Positions 11,951 to 55,455 of a DNA stretch of 64,000 bases are shown one piece after another. A model generated the notes under the pieces. The model was not told the DNA's origin. It worked only from the letters and a program-made list of their open reading frames with translations, and did no database searches. The translations under genes and the position numbers were made by a program. The DNA is from a virus (Duplodnaviria > Caudoviricetes): IMG/VR virus record IMGVR_UViG_2531839301_000007, positions 14,596 to 78,595 of that record; one strand, written 5' to 3'. Positions within the stretch are counted from its first letter, which is position 1; each line of letters opens with the position of its first letter.

Positions 11951-12172
11951 ATGATTAAAATTGATACAAAAGAAGACCCTCGACAAGTGGTTGAACACCA
12001 CAAGTTAGTGATTTGCCCGACATGCGGACAAAAGCTCACTGATGTTAAGTATGTTGATGGTATTGTTATGCTACGGATTAAATGCCGTAGATGCAGGAAA
12101 TACATTAGTGTTGATTTGATAGGTAGTAAAGAAGATATTCAGGATACATTGCGGGATGGAGCAGTCAGGTAG
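11951..12172 (+). CDS. Zinc-ribbon protein, Mu Com-like regulator candidate
   Basis: CPTCGQKL...IKCRRCRK double CxxC. Confidence 0.65.
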   Translation: MIKIDTKEDPRQVVEHHKLVICPTCGQKLTDVKYVDGIVMLRIKCRRCRKYISVDLIGSKEDIQDTLRDGAVR

Positions 12173-12223
12173 CTCGTTGGGGTCATATCCCAAAGGTCGT
12201 TGGTTCAAATCCAACTCCCGCTA
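12150..12223 (+). tRNA. tRNA-fMet(CAT), initiator type
   Basis: Anticodon arm TTGGG GTCATAT CCCAA with three G-C pairs; 1:72 mismatch; T-loop TTCAAAT. Confidence 0.9.
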
Positions 12224-12300
12224 CAATCAAACGGAGGTGCGGTTACTCTACCGCCGGGGATGAAAAGGAGACGTTTTCCCGTTCGGAAAAAACGGGGAAT

Positions 12301-12376
12301 GGAAAGATGGCAGACGCGGTGTATGCGCCGGACTGAAAATCCGGTTAAGGTGATTCGATTTCATCTCTTTCCACCA
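12301..12376 (+). tRNA. tRNA-Phe(GAA) with encoded CCA
   Basis: Acceptor GGAAAGA/TCTTTCC; anticodon arm CCGGA CTGAAAA TCCGG. Confidence 0.85.
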
Positions 12377-12441
12377 TTCAGTATTGTACAGGAGACGGGG
12401 GCGCATTGGGTCGATATATTGAATTTCAAATCCCTCTCATC

Positions 12442-12563
12442 GGCGTGACGGTGAATAGTTTAGTGGTCGAAAACACCAGTACAAACAATTACTTCGTAGT
12501 TGCAAATGCGAGTATGACTGATGAAAACCTATACGGTGTGGTTCAATTCCCACAGGTACGCCG
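12442..12563 (+). ncRNA. tRNA-like RNA with non-canonical central domain
   Basis: GGCGT(G)AC/GTACGCC acceptor-like stem, GTTT/AAAC D-like arm, TGTGG-TTCAATTC-CCACA T-like arm. Confidence 0.4.
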
Positions 12564-12601
12564 CAATGGGGTATCGCAGGTCAGGTGAGTATAGGTATGT
12601 T

Positions 12602-12674
12602 GTCCGGTTAGCTCAATTGGTAGAGCAATACACTGTTAATGTAAAGGTCGGTAGTTCGATTCTATCACCGGGCG
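12602..12674 (+). tRNA. tRNA-Asn(GTT)
   Basis: Acceptor GTCCGGT/ACCGGGC; loop CT GTT AA. Confidence 0.9.
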
Positions 12675-12681
12675 CAATGAA

Positions 12682-12754
12682 GCGGAGATAGTTCAGTTGG
12701 AAGAACGTCAGATTCCAAACCTGATTGTCGGGGGTTCGAGTCCTTCTCTTCGCG
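12682..12754 (+). tRNA. tRNA-Trp(CCA)
   Basis: Acceptor GCGGAGA/TCTTCGC; loop TT CCA AA. Confidence 0.9.
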
Positions 12755-12759
12755 CATAT

Positions 12760-12830
12760 TGAGATATGGTGTAATGGTAACACAACAGATTTTGGTTCTG
12801 TTATTCAAGGTTCGAGTCCTTGTGTCCCAA
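12760..12830 (+). tRNA. tRNA-Gln(TTG)
   Basis: Anticodon arm ACAGA TTTTGGT TCTGT; T arm CAAGG TTCGAGT CCTTG. Confidence 0.9.
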
Positions 12831-12835
12831 CATTT

Positions 12836-12920
12836 GGAAGTATGGGTGAGTGAACGATACCACCTCTTTGCTAAAGAGGCAAGCTGAAAGGCTTCGGAGG
12901 TTTGAATCCTTCTGCTTCCG
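12836..12920 (+). tRNA. tRNA-Ser(GCT)
   Basis: Acceptor GGAAGTA/TGCTTCC; CCTCT TTGCTAA AGAGG; long variable arm. Confidence 0.9.
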
Positions 12921-12939
12921 CAATTAAAGATATAAGACC

Positions 12940-14334: not shown

Positions 14335-15501
14335 ATGGAAGTTAGAGATAGAGAATTTTATGATTTGATTGCCCGTGGGCTTGAAAACAATGGTATTTCT
14401 TTTCAGGATTACATTGACGAAATGTTTGCTGAAAAGTATAATAAGCCCGAAACTCCCGGATTTGATTGGGAACCGGATATGCAGGATGATTTTGAGTTTA
14501 AGCAAATCTCCGCAACTGCTCGTGTATATACGATGGCAACGTATGTTGATTTCGACTCTCCCGGTCCGGTTAAGCACACAGAAGGCTTCGAGCTTGGTAG
14601 TGACAAGATGCCTCGTATGAAGCATGAGTTCAATATTGACGAAGCTAAAATCCGCTTGCACATGCAAGCATTGCAACAGTTCGGGGTGTTCTCTGAACGT
14701 ATGGCACAAAGTGTTGAAAACTTGCTGTTTGAAAGCACTGATATGTTGCTCGGTGGTAACTACAACTCTTTGAAGTTCCAACGCCATCAAGCCGTATCTA
14801 AAGGTCAGTTTGATATTATCGCGGAAAACAACCCGCAAGGTATTACAGGTGTCAGCATTGATTTCCATGTACCCGGCAAGAACCGTTGGGAAATTGCTTG
14901 GTGGAAGAAAGATGGTACTCTGAATGCGGATATCACACCATTGGAAGACCTGAAAAACAAGGTTACTTATATTCGTCAGACTTGCTATGCTCCGGTAGAC
15001 CATATCGAAGTAAACAAGATTACATGGGACAAGTTCATTATGATTCCGGCTGTAAGACAGGCTCTCGGATACATCAAGAATCCGTTGGTTACTACTGCTG
15101 ATGCTGCCGTACAAATTGGCGTGAGCTTGCTGGATGATGAAATGAAGGTCTTGGTAGAGAAGTATGTTGGTGCTCCTATTACCATTATTGATAGTGTTTC
15201 CGTTGTAGAGAAGTTCGACAAGAAAACTCGCACGGTTTCTACTCCGACATTGCAGAGTTTCGATGAAAATGTATTTGTTTTCGTTCCTTCTTCTCGTATC
15301 GGTACGATCAAGGCGGTAACTCCAATCGTAATCAATGATCCGGCGGCTCGTATTGCTTTCTATGATGAAGGACGTACCGTAATCACACAGACTTTTGATG
15401 CCTATAACAAGGTACAGAAGATTTCGAGTGAGCTTACAGCATTGTGCGTGCCGAATGTGGTGAGACAAATGTATTACCTGACTGTAAAGGCAAGTAAATA
15501 A
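14335..15501 (+). CDS. Major capsid protein (HK97 fold, inferred)
   Basis: 388 aa, position after scaffold/decoration and before connector genes. Confidence 0.8.
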   Translation: MEVRDREFYDLIARGLENNGISFQDYIDEMFAEKYNKPETPGFDWEPDMQDDFEFKQISATARVYTMATYVDFDSPGPVKHTEGFELGSDKMPRMKHEFNIDEAKIRLHMQALQQFGVFSERMAQSVENLLFESTDMLLGGNYNSLKFQRHQAVSKGQFDIIAENNPQGITGVSIDFHVPGKNRWEIAWWKKDGTLNADITPLEDLKNKVTYIRQTCYAPVDHIEVNKITWDKFIMIPAVRQALGYIKNPLVTTADAAVQIGVSLLDDEMKVLVEKYVGAPITIIDSVSVVEKFDKKTRTVSTPTLQSFDENVFVFVPSSRIGTIKAVTPIVINDPAARIAFYDEGRTVITQTFDAYNKVQKISSELTALCVPNVVRQMYYLTVKASK

Positions 15502-34229: not shown

Positions 34230-35549
34230 ATGGCATCAAAAACTTTAGGAAGTGAAACCATAGTACAATCTATGCTAAGAAGCAATAGTGTACTCGTTGA
34301 GATTGACGGAAACGTTCGCCGTATTTCATTGGAGAATCTGATGAACGCAATTAATACAGGTAATGAACAACTTCTGCGACAAGTCGCATGGGGTATCCCT
34401 TTAAAGCATAAAGTTCAGAGTAGTACTGCTTATGGAGTTGTAGGAAATACGGCTGCATGGGCTGAATACAAACGAATGAGTGGACGTTATCTCGTTAATA
34501 ATGCGGGGAAAGCCTCAAAACTATCTCCGACTAATTCAGGAGTGTTTGCTGACGGTACTGCTCTTGACGAATCCAAAGGACATGTAATGTTCATTTCTCC
34601 GCGTTTATACTTTTTAGTTAAGACTGATAGTGTAAGCGGAATACCTTATTTATGGTTAAGCATGTATCCAATCGGTGGACATTATATTGGTGGAGCCAAT
34701 GGTGGTGAATACAACTGTATTGGTGCGTATAAAGGTTCTATGTCAGGCAGTGCGCTTGTTTCCCGTTCCGGGGTATCTCCGGCAGGAAGTAAGACTATCA
34801 ATGCCTTTTGGAGTGCAGCACAAGTGAATGGTAAAGACTGGGGACTGACTGACTACGATCAGCGTAAACTTATTATGATGCTTGGATTATCTGAATATGG
34901 AGATACCAATATTCAAGCAAAACTGGGGTACGGTGTTAGTGGTAGCTCAAACTTGGATTTATGGGGGGCTGCGGCATCATTGAAAACCGGAGCTACCAAA
35001 AGTCTTGGTGATAACTGGGGAAAGATTGGCATTTCATTAGTGAATGGAAGCATTACGGGTGTGAATTGTTCACGTGTAAACATGATGGGTATTGAAGACC
35101 CTTATGGATGGCAATGGGAAGATATACAAGGGGTATATTGTGGAAACTCTGCAAATGATACACAAGACGGAACCGAAATCTTTATCTATAAAGGCAACCG
35201 ACTTCCAACTACTGCTGAAGTATCTACTCACCCTAACGGGGAATACCGACAAGCAACCCGTTTAACAACAAGTGGGTATGTACAGGAAATTATGGCTGGG
35301 GATAACTTCGATATTTTCCCGGCAAAGATTGGCGGAGGAAGTACTTCATATTGGGCTGATTATTCATGGGCTAACAACACTGGGCAGCTTGTCTTTTGGG
35401 GCGGTAATGCGTCTTTCGGTGCGTACTGCGGCTTGGCGTATGCGTACTCGAATTACGCTTGGTCGCTCTCGTATGCGGATGTCGGCTCTCGCCTTGCTTA
35501 TTATGGGAATTTAACATTTGTTACGGGTGCTGAATTGATGGCATCTTAA
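34230..35549 (+). CDS. DGR target 1: putative receptor-binding protein with C-type-lectin/FGE-like C-terminus
   Basis: GIEDPYGWQWE and GGN...GSRLA motifs; VR1 at 3' end. Confidence 0.9.
   Translation: MASKTLGSETIVQSMLRSNSVLVEIDGNVRRISLENLMNAINTGNEQLLRQVAWGIPLKHKVQSSTAYGVVGNTAAWAEYKRMSGRYLVNNAGKASKLSPTNSGVFADGTALDESKGHVMFISPRLYFLVKTDSVSGIPYLWLSMYPIGGHYIGGANGGEYNCIGAYKGSMSGSALVSRSGVSPAGSKTINAFWSAAQVNGKDWGLTDYDQRKLIMMLGLSEYGDTNIQAKLGYGVSGSSNLDLWGAAASLKTGATKSLGDNWGKIGISLVNGSITGVNCSRVNMMGIEDPYGWQWEDIQGVYCGNSANDTQDGTEIFIYKGNRLPTTAEVSTHPNGEYRQATRLTTSGYVQEIMAGDNFDIFPAKIGGGSTSYWADYSWANNTGQLVFWGGNASFGAYCGLAYAYSNYAWSLSYADVGSRLAYYGNLTFVTGAELMAS
35386..35502 (+). repeat. DGR variable repeat VR1
   Basis: 117 bp vs TR: 13 mismatches, all at TR adenines (hand alignment). 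Confidence 0.97.
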
Positions 35550-35672: not shown

Positions 35673-35792
35673 AAGAGCTTGTCTTTTGGGGCGGTAATGC
35701 GAATAACGGTGCGAACTGCGGCTTGGCGTATGCGAACTCGAATAACGCTTGGTCGAACTCGAATGCGAATGTCGGCTCTCGCCATACTTATT
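35673..35792 (+). repeat. DGR template repeat TR
   Basis: Ten AAT/AAC codons in the VR reading frame; matches VR1 and VR2 except at adenines. Confidence 0.97.
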
Positions 35793-36063
35793 TAATCGTG
35801 GAGAAATCTGCGAGTTCCCTGAACCATGACCCTGCAATATTATGGTTGCAGCGTAGTAACCAGTAAGTTACGATGTCAAAAAAACACGTGCGGAAAGGTC
35901 TGTTCATCTTGCGAAAACAGACAAGCGGCGTTAGTAGGTTTATTCTCGAAAGCTCCGGGCAAATTATTCAAGCAAGCAAAATGGACTTGCAATATCGGAA
36001 TAATTGAAATAGGTCTGAAGAAGACAAAATTAAAAGTATGGTGTAAATTTTAAATAGAAGGTA

Positions 36064-36744
36064 ATGACTAAGAGAAGAGGATTTTTGATAGAACAGATTG
36101 CTGATATGGATAATCTTCGGGAAGCGGATAGAGATGCGCAGGATGGAAAGGTAAAGAAGAACCGATTTATCCGCCGTCACAACGAGCACGCCAAAGATGA
36201 TTTAGAGGCTTTAAGGGAAATGATATTAACGCTGAACTTTCCTGACCCGAACTTCAGTATTATGACGGTTGTCAGTGATGCGGGGAAGAGAAGGGATATT
36301 GCAAAACAAAGCTATTTCCCGTGGCGTATTCTCCACCATGCCATAATGAGGGTAATTGGGGAAGAGCTTTATAAGAGCCTCATTCTTGATACGAGTGCTT
36401 GTATAAAAGGAAAGGGATTGCATTTTGGAGTCAGGCGCATGAAGATGTTTCTACGTAGGTATCCTGAATATAAATGGTTTGTAAAGACCGATTTCAAAAA
36501 GTTCTATCAGAGTATTCCACATGAAGTATTGCTTAATGCGCTTCGCCGGAAATTCAAAGACGAGAAGTTTATAAAGCTGATTGAGATTGCATTATTGAGT
36601 TATGATAGCGGAGAAGAGTTAATTGAAATTTTGGAAAATGAAGAACTTCGGAAAAAGAGGTGTACCGATTGGAGCATACACAAGCCAACCACTCGGAAAT
36701 TTCGCTGTAAGCCCGATAGACCACAAGTTCAAAGAACAGTATAA
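36064..36744 (+). CDS. DGR reverse transcriptase, N-terminal part
   Basis: GKRRDI, WRILHHAI, SACIKGKG, KTDFKKFYQSI. Confidence 0.9.
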   Translation: MTKRRGFLIEQIADMDNLREADRDAQDGKVKKNRFIRRHNEHAKDDLEALREMILTLNFPDPNFSIMTVVSDAGKRRDIAKQSYFPWRILHHAIMRVIGEELYKSLILDTSACIKGKGLHFGVRRMKMFLRRYPEYKWFVKTDFKKFYQSIPHEVLLNALRRKFKDEKFIKLIEIALLSYDSGEELIEILENEELRKKRCTDWSIHKPTTRKFRCKPDRPQVQRTV

Positions 36745-36958
36745 GGTCAAATGTTTGCATCGGTATTGTGATGATAACGTGATGCTTGCTCGGACAAAAG
36801 GTGAAGCTAAGTTCCTACTTCGGGAATATAACCGGGTAAGTGCAGAATATGGATTGGTTGTGAAAGGGAATAGTTGTATTTCTCCAATAGGAACGGAAGT
36901 TAGGCATGAAAACAAAAAACATAGAAAGCGAAAAAGAAGTAAGAGGAAGAAGGATTAG
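36623..36958 (+). CDS. DGR reverse transcriptase, middle part (+1 frame)
   Basis: GVPIGAYTSQPLGN and catalytic RYCDD. Confidence 0.9.
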   Translation: MKFWKMKNFGKRGVPIGAYTSQPLGNFAVSPIDHKFKEQYKVKCLHRYCDDNVMLARTKGEAKFLLREYNRVSAEYGLVVKGNSCISPIGTEVRHENKKHRKRKRSKRKKD

Positions 36959-37493
36959 CTTCTTGGGATATTGCTTTACACCGGACAATGTAAGGCTTCG
37001 TAAGAACATGAAGAAAACCTTCGCGCGAAAAGATAAACGAATAAAGAGCCGTAAACGTAAGCAACAAATCCGTGCATCATACTGGGGATGGTGTAAATGG
37101 GGAGATTGCCGAAATTTATGGAAAACAATAACAGATAATGATATGAGTTTTGCTGACAAAGGAATCAAACAAAGTGGAAAGACAAAGGACGGAAAGAAGT
37201 TCTTTGATGTTTCGGAAATGAGATTAATGGAAATTTTGAATATTCCCATTAAGGTATTGGATTTTGAAACAAACGTGAAGACTTCACAGGGAGACGGAAG
37301 GTATTGTGTACTGTTTGAAATGAATGGTGCAAAATACAAGTTCATAACAAATTGCTTTAACCTGAAAGATGTGCTCGATCAAGCAAGGCTACGGGAACAA
37401 GAAACGGGCGATAAGATTTTCCCGGTGGAGAATGTGATTATTAAAAGACGTGCACTTCGTGAAGGAAAGAGTGCTTATTATTTTGATGAATAA
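36906..37493 (+). CDS. DGR RT C-terminal part (+1 again) fused to an extra ~116-aa domain
   Basis: ISFLGY motif, thumb SYWGWCKW, then MSFADKG... from in-frame ATG 37143. Confidence 0.85.
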   Translation: MKTKNIESEKEVRGRRISFLGYCFTPDNVRLRKNMKKTFARKDKRIKSRKRKQQIRASYWGWCKWGDCRNLWKTITDNDMSFADKGIKQSGKTKDGKKFFDVSEMRLMEILNIPIKVLDFETNVKTSQGDGRYCVLFEMNGAKYKFITNCFNLKDVLDQARLREQETGDKIFPVENVIIKRRALREGKSAYYFDE

Positions 37494-37510: not shown

Positions 37511-37885
37511 ATGAAAGCGTACAGTGATTTTAATGGAGTGGTGCCCGAAGGTGTACAAGTTACAGTGGAAGGTAGTTTGGTGCGATTGTTCTTTGATTAT
37601 GCCAAAAACGAAATTACCGTTGAAGGTGAAAAGCGTGAACAGTTGGTTTGTGAGAATGTAAATGCAAGCGGGAGAACGTATGAAGAGCTTGTCAGTGCTA
37701 TTGTAACTGACCGCTATTCGGCAGATAGACGTGAAGCCGTATTCGCCAATTATGAAGAAGCCAAAGATGAAACGAGTGAACTAACTGAAGTAAAACGCGC
37801 TGAATATTTAAAGGAATATTCTGATTTTCAGGCATGGCGTAAACGCGCAAAAGAAGTAGCAAATGAAGTATTAGCAAAATTGTAA
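37511..37885 (+). CDS. Phage hypothetical protein
   Basis: 124 aa with GGAGG upstream. Confidence 0.65.
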   Translation: MKAYSDFNGVVPEGVQVTVEGSLVRLFFDYAKNEITVEGEKREQLVCENVNASGRTYEELVSAIVTDRYSADRREAVFANYEEAKDETSELTEVKRAEYLKEYSDFQAWRKRAKEVANEVLAKL

Positions 37886-51258: not shown

Positions 51259-51843
51259 TTATCTTTTCCCGATCAGAAAATCTCTCCATAATTCTTTGAA
51301 CTGATTTCCAAAGTATTTGGCTATTTCCTCTGATTTTACAGCAAGGCGAGAGCCGACAGACGCAGTCGAGACCGACCAAGCGTACTTCGAGTACGCACAC
51401 GCCAAGCCGCAGTACGCACCGTAATCCGCATTACCGCCCCAAAAGACAAGCTCTTTGCGTTTCTCTTCGTCCATGTCGTCAATCTCTTCTTGTGAATACA
51501 GATAATACCACGGGAACCAACGGTATTCGTTTTCAGTGAACCGAGGAAACTCCGGGTCATTGTTCAAAGCACGGGCAATCGTGGATAGCTTCACATAAGC
51601 GATATGTGCAATGTCAATCACCTCTTCTTTCTGCCCGTCTCCATATTCGATAAGTAGGCGGGAAACAGGTTTGATACCAAGTGCTTCACAAGCATCTTCA
51701 TAGGTTTTAATGTTATGAAAATCAGTATAATCCGGTTTCTGTTTACCGAAAAGATTAGTAAGAATGTTGATAGCAACTTCGCAACCGTCAGCGGACTTAA
51801 ACGCTTCAGTTACATTTTCTTGTTTAATTTCAATAGCTTTCAT
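51259..51843 (-). CDS. DGR target 2: small non-structural protein with VR at C-terminus
   Basis: Contains VR2 (ELVFWGGNADYGAYCGLACAYSKYAWSVSTASVGSRLA). Confidence 0.9.
   Translation of the reverse strand: MKAIEIKQENVTEAFKSADGCEVAINILTNLFGKQKPDYTDFHNIKTYEDACEALGIKPVSRLLIEYGDGQKEEVIDIAHIAYVKLSTIARALNNDPEFPRFTENEYRWFPWYYLYSQEEIDDMDEEKRKELVFWGGNADYGAYCGLACAYSKYAWSVSTASVGSRLAVKSEEIAKYFGNQFKELWRDFLIGKR
51340..51455 (-). repeat. DGR variable repeat VR2 (remote)
   Basis: 116 bp vs TR 35673-35788: 14 mismatches, 13 at TR adenines, one T>G. Confidence 0.95.
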
Positions 51844-54533: not shown

Positions 54534-54653
54534 TCATTCAGCGATAATCGCAAGCTGACCGCAAGCGGCACCATTTTCAATCTCTGACTTTGTAGCTATT
54601 GCCACAGCATAGTCATACCCTAAATTTTCTAACTGTTCTTTAATTTCCTTCAT
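54534..54653 (-). CDS. 39-aa peptide carrying the RlmN-type catalytic AACGQL motif (not in ORF track)
   Basis: Hand translation MKEIKEQLENLGYDYAVAIATKSEIENGAACGQLAIIAE. Confidence 0.8.
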   Translation of the reverse strand: MKEIKEQLENLGYDYAVAIATKSEIENGAACGQLAIIAE

Positions 54654-54672
54654 AACTTTGTAAATTAATTGT

Positions 54673-55455
54673 TTATACTAAATTCACACCTTCAATAATA
54701 CCTTCTCCCAAATGATTTTTTTCAGAAATATTATTAGGGTTTATGGGAGATAGTTTTATGAAGAAGTGCTTTTTATCGAAATATTTCTGAAGTAACTCGG
54801 CATTAAAATCAGATTCATCTACCAGTGTAAGATTAATAGTCGTTTTTAGATTACTTTCAGTCCGTATTCGACCAAGTTCTTCAATAGACATCTTTGATGG
54901 ATATGGGATAAGCCAATTCCGTTTTTGTTCATCAAAACTATGTAGACTGATTTGTAGAGTGATATTATCTTTAATAAAAGAGAAATCACTTCCCTGTATT
55001 CCTATTGTTGAAATGTAATGGTGGGTATTGGGATATACCTTCGATATACGTTCAATAGCTTCCTTTACAGCCTCTATATTCAAAAAAGGTTCACCCATTC
55101 GAGTATAGTTTATTTTAAACTCTTTAGCACTTTCAGGATTAAAACCAGCCTTCTTTATAGCAAAAAAGACTTGTCCCACTATTTCATCGGCTGTTAGATT
55201 CCGATATTTCTTCATATTCCCAGTTGCACAAAATTTGCATCTCACAGGGCAACCGCTCATTGTAGATACTCCGATCATCCATCGTTCTGAACGATTACCT
55301 AAATTGGAATTATCCAAAGAGTTTTGTTTTCTTCCTATTGCATCTTTTGTATAAAATGGGAGAAAGGTATCAGTCGTTTCTACTAACATTCCATCTTCAA
55401 GTTGGAGGCAATACACAACTCCATTCTTGAAATTCTTTTGTTTTTTTATTTCCAT
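54673..55455 (-). CDS. RlmN/Cfr-like radical SAM RNA methyltransferase, N-terminal part
   Basis: SGCPVRCKFCATG, MGEP, ISLH, LSPINP; lacks terminal AACGQL. Confidence 0.85.
   Translation of the reverse strand: MEIKKQKNFKNGVVYCLQLEDGMLVETTDTFLPFYTKDAIGRKQNSLDNSNLGNRSERWMIGVSTMSGCPVRCKFCATGNMKKYRNLTADEIVGQVFFAIKKAGFNPESAKEFKINYTRMGEPFLNIEAVKEAIERISKVYPNTHHYISTIGIQGSDFSFIKDNITLQISLHSFDEQKRNWLIPYPSKMSIEELGRIRTESNLKTTINLTLVDESDFNAELLQKYFDKKHFFIKLSPINPNNISEKNHLGEGIIEGVNLV

Follow-up and report, generated by a model that had tools for sequence, protein, structure and literature searches.

How a virus can produce one reverse transcriptase (RT) from a coding region that changes reading frame twice is the question raised by positions 36,064 to 37,493 of the DNA analysed here. 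This stretch, hereafter called the window, comprises 64,000 nucleotides (nt) of a Bacteroides phage (Duplodnaviria; Caudoviricetes), positions 14,596 to 78,595 of the 78.6-kb provirus record IMGVR_UViG_2531839301_000007 of IMG/VR. It carries a diversity-generating retroelement (DGR) whose RT is encoded by three overlapping open reading frames (ORFs), each shifted +1 from the previous one (ORF1 to ORF2 to ORF3). An earlier note on this DNA, made from the letters alone, had left the choice between double frameshifting and assembly of the pieces in trans. The comparative data reported below better support trans-assembly, through the selection acting on the start codons and on the tail of ORF2, and are less favourable to a double frameshift: with a probability of about 0.6, this RT consists of three separately initiated polypeptides that assemble.

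Layout and conservation of the three-frame RT

The essentials of the arrangement described in the earlier note were all recovered, namely three overlapping +1 ORFs encoding an RT, motifs split over three frames with an intact YCDD, an ATG for each downstream piece (36638 and 36906) and breaks falling between conserved motifs. An ORF check was in agreement with colinear matches to the RT profile PHROG 1423, of which positions 95-271 were matched by ORF1, 282-385 by ORF2 and 356-529 by ORF3; Pfam RVT_1 matched the first two pieces. Motifs 1-3, 4-6 and 7 are thereby distributed over separate pieces (Table 1), with YCDD at 36764-36775, within ORF2. The ORF2 frame opens after a TAA at 36620-36622 and is closed by a stop at 36956-36958; the ORF3 frame opens after a TAG at 36888-36890 and is closed at 37491-37493. 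The resulting gene overlaps, both +1, measure 107 nt (ORF1/ORF2) and 53 nt (ORF2/ORF3). Alignment with the single-ORF RTs of Hankyphage p00, BKO1-TP3 and the crAss-like cr10_1 placed the first break between motifs 3 and 4 and the second between motifs 6 and 7. Both breaks sit in insertions of about 15-20 residues which are missing from these three RTs. ORF1 is constrained only from 36064 to about 36657, and its segment 36661-36744 is an unconstrained tail in the alternate frame. Stand-alone homologues of ORF2, about 105-115 amino acids (aa) long, numbered 36.

Table 1. Coordinates of the RT pieces, of their extensions and of the DGR repeats and target, in window numbering
Feature	Position	Strand	Remarks
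RT piece 1 (ORF1)	36064-36744	+	Frame 1; motifs 1-3 including the motif-3 Asp; matches Pfam RVT_1 and PHROG 1423
RT piece 2 (ORF2)	36638-36958	+	Frame 2; motif 4 (RGVPIGAYTSQ), motif 5 (YCDD) and motif 6; matches Pfam RVT_1 and PHROG 1423
RT piece 3 (ORF3)	36906-37493	+	Frame 3; unconserved 13-aa N-terminus, motif 7 (ISFLGY), thumb and beta-rich C-terminal domain
ATG start codon of piece 2	36638-36640	+	Within the ORF1 codons AAT-GAA
ATG start codon of piece 3	36906-36908	+	Within the ORF2 codons CAT-GAA
C-terminal extension of piece 1	36613-36660	+	Acidic amphipathic helix, then R-K-x-R; insertion relative to single-ORF RTs
Basic motif R-K-R-K-R-S, C-terminal tail of piece 2	36923-36940	+	Overlapped by the ORF3 N-terminus
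Beta-rich C-terminal domain of ORF3	about 37227-37490	+	Residues ~108-195
DGR target gene 1 (tail protein)	34230-35549	+	Variable repeat VR1 at the C-terminus; PHROG 5302 'tail protein', E 1.7e-43
VR1	35386-35502	+	117-nt repeat, 89% identical to the template repeat
Template repeat (TR)	35676-35792	+	One variable site only among 14 loci of the window lineage
VR2	51336-51452	-	Inside ORF 51843-51259 (194 aa); TR 3'-end motif recurs at 51345-51357

A layout of this kind has been published before. In Quimbyvirus, an RT in three frames was described and read as the product of two programmed frameshifts (Benler et al. 2021, PMC8008677), so that the report mentioned in the earlier note, under the name 'Quimbyviridae', is a real one. 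Quimbyvirus and LoVEphage are taken here as the same phage because both are ~95% identical to the Bacteroides dorei prophage CP011531.

The extent of conservation was evaluated on 164 related loci, 150 of them drawn from 47 IMG/VR contigs, 80 metagenome contigs, annotated phage records and contigs holding divergent stand-alone ORF2 proteins, and the other 14 from species-representative genome assemblies. The second step (ORF2 to ORF3) was +1 in 148 of the 164 loci, that is in 137 of the 150 and in 11 of the 14 genome loci, the latter including Bacteroides acidifaciens DSM 15896, B. intestinalis, B. oleiciplenus and a Fermentimonas metagenome-assembled genome. The exceptions were single-ORF outgroups, a deletion of YCDD, length variants of an A-tract and distant Melainabacteria RTs. 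The first step (ORF1 to ORF2), for which ORF1 frames were taken from tblastn, was +1 in all scored IMG/VR loci and phage records bar three single-ORF outgroups. The split forms make up about 24 lineages (<88% identity in the ORF2 core), reaching down to ~50% amino-acid identity, and every indel among them preserves the +1/+1 layout. All three cores are under purifying selection, with a ratio of non-synonymous to synonymous polymorphism (pN/pS) of about 0.3 (0.30 for the ORF2 core). Judged by this recurrence, the three-frame layout is real and conserved.

Sequencing or assembly errors, or a decaying RT pseudogene, were considered as an explanation, and genuine knock-outs do occur in this group, two contigs having lost the YCDD codons through an 11-nt deletion. 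However, both +1 steps recur at identical places in well over 100 independent assemblies, cultured Bacteroides included, the pieces are all under the purifying selection just described, and the variable repeats (VRs) of the DGR are hypervariable at adenines of the template repeat (TR). These sequence comparisons refute both readings, which we regard as excluded for practical purposes. The earlier note had pointed to a continuous ORF in close relatives, or to invariant VRs, as observations that would count against it. This check turned out in favour of the note: within the three-frame lineages close relatives keep the breaks and their VRs vary. Continuous ORFs do exist in the wider clade (P0042 and P0037, see below).

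Selection at the junctions and the expression of the pieces

The clearest signals come from junction 2 (ORF2/ORF3). An in-frame ATG was found 27-48 nt before the conserved G-R-x-I-D-F-L-G-Y in 23/23 lineages; by chance, a stretch of 8 codons would hold one or more ATGs with a probability of 0.22 per lineage. The ORF2 codon lying over this ATG is CAT, AAT, GAT or TAT (H, N, D or Y), and NAC occurs in 0/23 lineages; as all four first bases are seen, the residue at this ORF2 codon is free to vary. At such codons in the cores, the background share of T is 0.54 and 46% end in C, and the exclusive use of NAT has a probability of about 7e-7 when 23 lineages are counted as independent, or about 6e-4 with 12. 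Past the ATG, ORF2 continues into a basic tail, R[KR]R[KQ]R[SGM], which is present in 23/23 lineages with Arg codons alternating between AGR and CGN and is missing from single-ORF relatives. This tail displays a pN/pS of 0.24 in frame 2 versus 1.07 in frame 3; it is selected in frame 2 and not in frame 3, which argues that ribosomes read frame 2 well past the ORF3 ATG. The first 10-15 residues of ORF3 are unconstrained, selection moving to the ORF3 frame only 2-4 codons before the conserved Gly, and the ORF2 stop lies 11 nt past the junction in 15/23 lineages. From this pattern of substitution, the ORF2 tail is plainly a translated C-terminus. A purine run with AAAAAA/AAAAAG tracts, to which the earlier note had drawn attention at this overlap, is present in the window, but it is unconserved, encodes the conserved basic peptide and contains no slippery homopolymer.

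At junction 1 (ORF1/ORF2), an ATG in the ORF2 frame precedes K-R-G-[VI]-P-I-G by 12-24 nt in 21/24 lineages, the other three having TTG. The ORF1 codon over the ORF2 start is always NAT and never NAC, and in several lineages the ORF2 frame opens exactly at its start ATG or one codon before it. Piece 1 ends in the acidic helix, whose pattern x-[ED]-[LIV]-[ILVM]-[ED]-x-L-[EDN]-[EDN]-E has persisted in 13 lineages with equal spacing although the nucleotides have changed at many positions. Beyond the junction, pN/pS is about 0.05-0.2 in the ORF2 frame and >1 in the ORF1 frame. The position of the ORF1 stop varies from -1 to +248 nt among lineages; in one of them (L142), ORF1 terminates with TAG exactly at the junction. 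Codon choice at both junctions indicates that the start codons of ORF2 and ORF3 are protected against synonymous change.

These data suggest that each piece would be translated from its own start (ATG 36064, 36638 and 36906), the downstream start codons lying in the C-terminal extension of the preceding piece, with the consequence that each gene runs into the next in the +1 frame. Non-covalent association of the three polypeptides would then yield a single enzyme, whose composite active site would take the motif-3 Asp from piece 1 and the YCDD from piece 2. What we infer is that translation starts at the internal ATGs, that the pieces come together, and that the acidic and basic extensions may contribute to this assembly or bind nucleic acid. 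Separate initiation is favoured over pure frameshifting because conserved start codons have no role in the latter and because the ORF2 tail appears as a translated C-terminus.

Several observations weigh against separate initiation. Its main weakness is the unselected and sometimes long read-through tail of ORF1. Most lineages lack an ORF1 stop close to junction 1, and piece 1 on its own would therefore end in 0-83 residues that are not under selection (27 of them in the window), an odd feature for a dedicated subunit. Immediately ahead of the Gly of the next piece, both junctions have AGG or CGG, occasionally GGG, as the last codon of the host frame, and an AGG/CGG codon could act as the slow codon of a +1 shift that does not depend on slippage. 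Chemical similarity between the residues that the host frame has at junction 1 (N or D, then E) makes the ATG there a weaker signal than the one at junction 2. The binomial P values overstate independence, since the lineages are related. Finally, the sole published reading is that of two programmed frameshifts (PMC8008677).

This published reading would yield a single RT of about 470 aa through +1 shifts near 36655-36659 and 36941-36945, and it is the most serious competitor, although we consider it unlikely. It is kept alive by the unselected ORF1 tail and by the AGG/CGG feature, as AGG, CGG or GGG overlaps the Gly codon of the next piece in nearly all lineages at both junctions, and as no ORF1 stop is kept near junction 1. 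The 0 and +1 frames overlap with functional sequence going on in the +1 frame, selection changes frame within 2-4 codons at both junctions, and the single-ORF relatives, whose junction 1 is bridged by an in-frame linker, demonstrate that the pieces can function when covalently joined there. However, AGG/CGG is equally expected wherever a basic residue of the host frame overlaps GGN, and the codon before the switch varies by lineage (AAG, GAG, GCG, TAG, ATG, CGT, AAA, GGT, AAC); the AAG of LoVEphage, the commonest lineage, is unable to re-pair in the +1 frame. There is no conserved stop codon at the shift site, and the downstream 60 nt show no consistently stable fold, with mean z-scores, relative to mononucleotide shuffles only, of -0.8 and -0.5 for the two junctions in 20 lineages. 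Protection of both in-frame ATGs from synonymous change is also left unexplained. A slow A-site AGG/CGG, rather than tRNA re-pairing, may drive the shift in such a scheme, and the ATG-started fragments could be extra products. The particular slip site proposed in the earlier note, CTT-CGG-A (36646-36652), is indeed present in the window and its closest relatives, but it is replaced by GAA-CGG-A in LoVEphage and by CGA-CGT-A or CTC-AAG-A in others, and was rejected. A more radical version, +1 frameshifting independent of slippage at a conserved [A/C]GG-GGN of both junctions in the Bacteroidota host, would supply fused and split RT forms side by side and let decoding tune the DGR; we hold it for less probable still, a speculative possibility in which the six tRNAs of the phage and an RlmN/Cfr-like methyltransferase may help.

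Correction at the transcript level, by RNA polymerase slippage or editing in purine runs, would restore one frame in some transcripts, and is very improbable. The window has A5-A6 runs at both overlaps. The A6 tract found before the ORF3 ATG in LoVEphage-type phages (equivalent to ~36895-36905) is A7 in two contigs (L137, L138) and A8 in a third (L040), where the A8 tract brings ORF2 and ORF3 into a common frame that lacks the basic tail. Against it, the runs are short and unconserved, LoVEphage having AAGAAG at junction 1 and many lineages being GC-rich at both junctions, and the A8 contig comes from an old sample, taken as 454 data, which are prone to homopolymer errors. Correction at the variable tract would moreover discard a selected peptide, since the conserved basic tail is encoded downstream of it. 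Even less credit can be given to a double translational bypass of the T4 gene 60 type, with take-off at GGA 36610 and 36890, landing at GGA 36650 and 36945 and both inserts skipped. Matched GGA codons do flank both inserts in the window and LoVEphage, and the product without inserts would be colinear with the Hankyphage RT. Yet the take-off Gly is absent in many lineages (NSE, DTK, ESD, VSS or ESS at junction 1; PIA, PIE, PIQ or PIR at junction 2), the take-off codon is not followed by a stop, and in the host frame purifying selection acts at the protein level on the supposed gaps, as would not be expected of untranslated sequence. With its codons unconserved and its gaps apparently translated, bypassing at matched GGA codons was rejected. 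The probability left over goes to mixed or unforeseen readings.

Some observations on these rival mechanisms may be added. The A7 and A8 variants could represent either homopolymer sequencing errors or real length variation. The six phage tRNA genes (Met, Phe, Asn, Trp, Gln, Ser) were located by ARAGORN at 12150-12921; in this cluster, it detected no expanded anticodon loop and no Arg or Gly tRNA bearing on the AGG/CGG-GGN junctions. The RlmN/Cfr-like radical-SAM gene lies on the minus strand in the region 54534-55455 and encodes 260 aa (55455-54673). Another ORF of 39 aa, with its own ATG and ending in ...GAACGQL, follows 19 nt past it in another frame, and this appears as another gene in pieces.

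Activity of the retroelement

The RT belongs with those of DGRs. Its best phage matches are DGR RTs, BPP-1 brt among them, and ORF2 carries the signature of the DGR clade, that is a motif 4 with [LIV]Gxxx-SQ together with a YxDD motif 5, here YCDD. At the syntenic position, PV4-TP1 and LoVEphage have a gene whose annotation reads tail or tail collar fibre protein, like target gene 1. Mismatches between VR1 and TR fall at TR adenines in 13/13 cases, as do 13/14 mismatches in the first 112 positions of VR2. Among 14 near-identical loci of the window lineage, 229/232 VR/TR mismatches were at TR adenines, and 9 distinct VRs were found versus 2 TR variants; the 45 loci of the LoVEphage-type lineage had 44 distinct VRs versus 5 TRs. 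Because VRs are many and TRs few, with mismatches at TR adenines, the repeats indicate that the DGR is active in lineages with a three-piece RT. The suggestion of the earlier note that the split arrangement throttles the DGR receives no support, VRs being different in almost every close relative.

It is worth noting that the YCDD deletion mentioned above, located at the equivalent of window 36768-36778, removes exactly the YCDD codons in two contigs (L006 and L007, also numbered L051 and L052; IMGVR_UViG_3300045988_095628 and IMGVR_UViG_3300045988_125032). These contigs are otherwise 99% identical and share one identical VR, also with a few non-adenine changes; the VRs of their relatives with an intact RT are nearly all different. 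From these sequences the two contigs look like natural RT-null variants with a frozen VR, an anecdotal case, though one in keeping with a working DGR. Like the second target reported for Quimbyvirus, the VR2 target lies on the opposite strand and at a distance from the RT cassette. Pfam and PHROG searches brought out no Avd-like gene beside the RT, and the small ORFs at 35826-36053 and 37511-37885 had no PHROG match.

Relatives and comparison with known systems

A search of 1.84 billion representative proteins with ORF3 as query returned three forms: stand-alone proteins of ~190-205 aa, one-piece RTs of 477-492 aa (P0042 and P0037) and a 272-aa fusion of ORF2 and ORF3 (P0039). The one-piece RTs have an in-frame linker at junction 1, and their junction 2 has neither the ATG nor the basic tail; P0037 (loci L059-L061) is located in a syntenic phage cassette. 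On the contig of P0039 (L165), junction 1 is a +1 junction with the acidic helix and the internal ATG, and junction 2 is uninterrupted. The absence of ATG and basic tail from fused junctions 2 implies that these features go with the split state and that a covalent join is dispensable there. One-, two- and three-piece forms constitute one clade apart from the Hankyphage group (support 100/100). A single origin of the three-piece form was not recovered in the free tree, which scatters one- and two-piece forms among the three-piece ones, and an approximately unbiased test does not reject its monophyly (p 0.24). The idea that the junction-1 linker of P0037 is a decayed duplicate of the alternate-frame tail of ORF1 was abandoned, its alignments against shuffles being non-significant (p 0.02-0.8 over 8 lineages, uncorrected).

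The closest known system is that of Quimbyvirus/LoVEphage (MW660583, and the cultured PV4-TP1, PQ571302, and BI-TP1, PQ571265), which has the same order of tail target, TR and three-frame +1 RT. Junction positions in LoVEphage, PV4-TP1 and BI-TP1 are the same as in the window, with no indels at the junctions. These phages, like the window, carry a distal second VR in the opposite orientation, and in both cases the hosts belong to Bacteroides or Phocaeicola. Identity with these phages is 76% at the nucleotide level in the RT region, for which reason the window is considered a different species from LoVEphage, and 75-80% at the amino-acid level in the RT; ORF1 of the window starts 45 codons later than the annotated ORF1 of LoVEphage. 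Adenine-specific VR variation and two targets were already reported for Quimbyvirus by Benler et al. 2021 (PMC8008677). The mechanism published there, two programmed frameshifts, differs from the separate initiation favoured by our conservation analysis, and no later paper testing the mechanism of the three-frame RT was found in the literature.

Hankyphage (Bacteroides phage p00, BK010646) has an RT with the same domain order, including a beta-rich domain after the thumb, a tail-protein target and no annotated Avd alongside the RT. However, its RT is a single 434-aa ORF with neither the acidic-helix insertion nor the insertion bearing the ATG and the basic tail. The bRT-Avd complex of Bordetella phage BPP-1 (PDB 8ub7) shares with the window a DGR RT with a motif-4 SQ, adenine-specific mutagenesis and a tail-fibre target. 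The BPP-1 bRT is a single 328-aa polypeptide working with a separate Avd protein, while the RT of the window has an extra C-terminal domain and no Avd was recognised.

Programmed +1 frameshifting is exemplified by prfB (CUU-UGA-C), by the Listeria phages A118 and PSA and by the yeast elements Ty1 and Ty3, and 'hungry codon' sites by CUU-AGG-C of Ty1 and by tandem AGG in Escherichia coli. The RT of the window recalls these cases by its overlapping 0 and +1 frames and by AGG/CGG at the switch, as at the Ty1 and E. coli sites. Unlike them, it has no conserved re-pairing codon, stop or stimulator, and has conserved start codons in the +1 frame. Separately translated pieces that assemble are known from split single-subunit polymerases, such as the two-subunit RNAP II of phage N4 and split archaeal PolB, which are DNA-dependent and encoded by ordinary adjacent genes. 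The RT of the window, in contrast, would be cut twice through the palm, and its genes overlap by 107 and 53 nt in the +1 frame.

To our knowledge, no natural split RT has been characterised. If the favoured reading is true, a three-subunit RT with a composite active site would be the first natural split reverse transcriptase, as far as known. It would map sites of a DGR RT that tolerate a cut, be useful for split or inducible DGR mutagenesis tools and correct the sole published interpretation. Should two +1 frameshifts without slippery sites be true instead, they would represent a new recoding signal in Bacteroidota, in which translation initiation and decoding are unusual. What is new here comprises the breadth of conservation, the series of one-, two- and three-piece forms and, from the sequences, evidence that the published mechanism probably does not hold. 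In the human gut, phages of the LoVEphage/Quimbyvirus type rank with the most prevalent temperate ones; about 8% of 1,241 gut viromes contained LoVEphage (PMC12629997). Tail proteins and counter-defence proteins are rewritten by the DGRs of these phages.

The third piece extends beyond the thumb. Compared with the last 180 aa of the Hankyphage RT, a single-ORF enzyme, ORF3 shows 43% identity, and its thumb matches residues 255-327 of the Bordetella bRT (8ub7). An AlphaFold2 model of ORF3, built on a 16-sequence alignment (mean pLDDT 68), displayed the thumb helices and a beta-rich domain over residues 108-195 with a pLDDT of about 80. Foldseek returned no match to this model in the PDB at E <= 0.001. 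VIA-align gave weak matches to OB folds and single-stranded DNA-binding proteins (SSBs), namely PRD1 P12 (Z 5.3, rmsd 3.2 over 87 residues), and Rim1 and bacterial SSBs at Z about 4. The model thus provides a weak indication, a lead only, that the C-terminal domain of ORF3 is OB-like, and this beta-rich domain might stand in for the missing Avd accessory protein.

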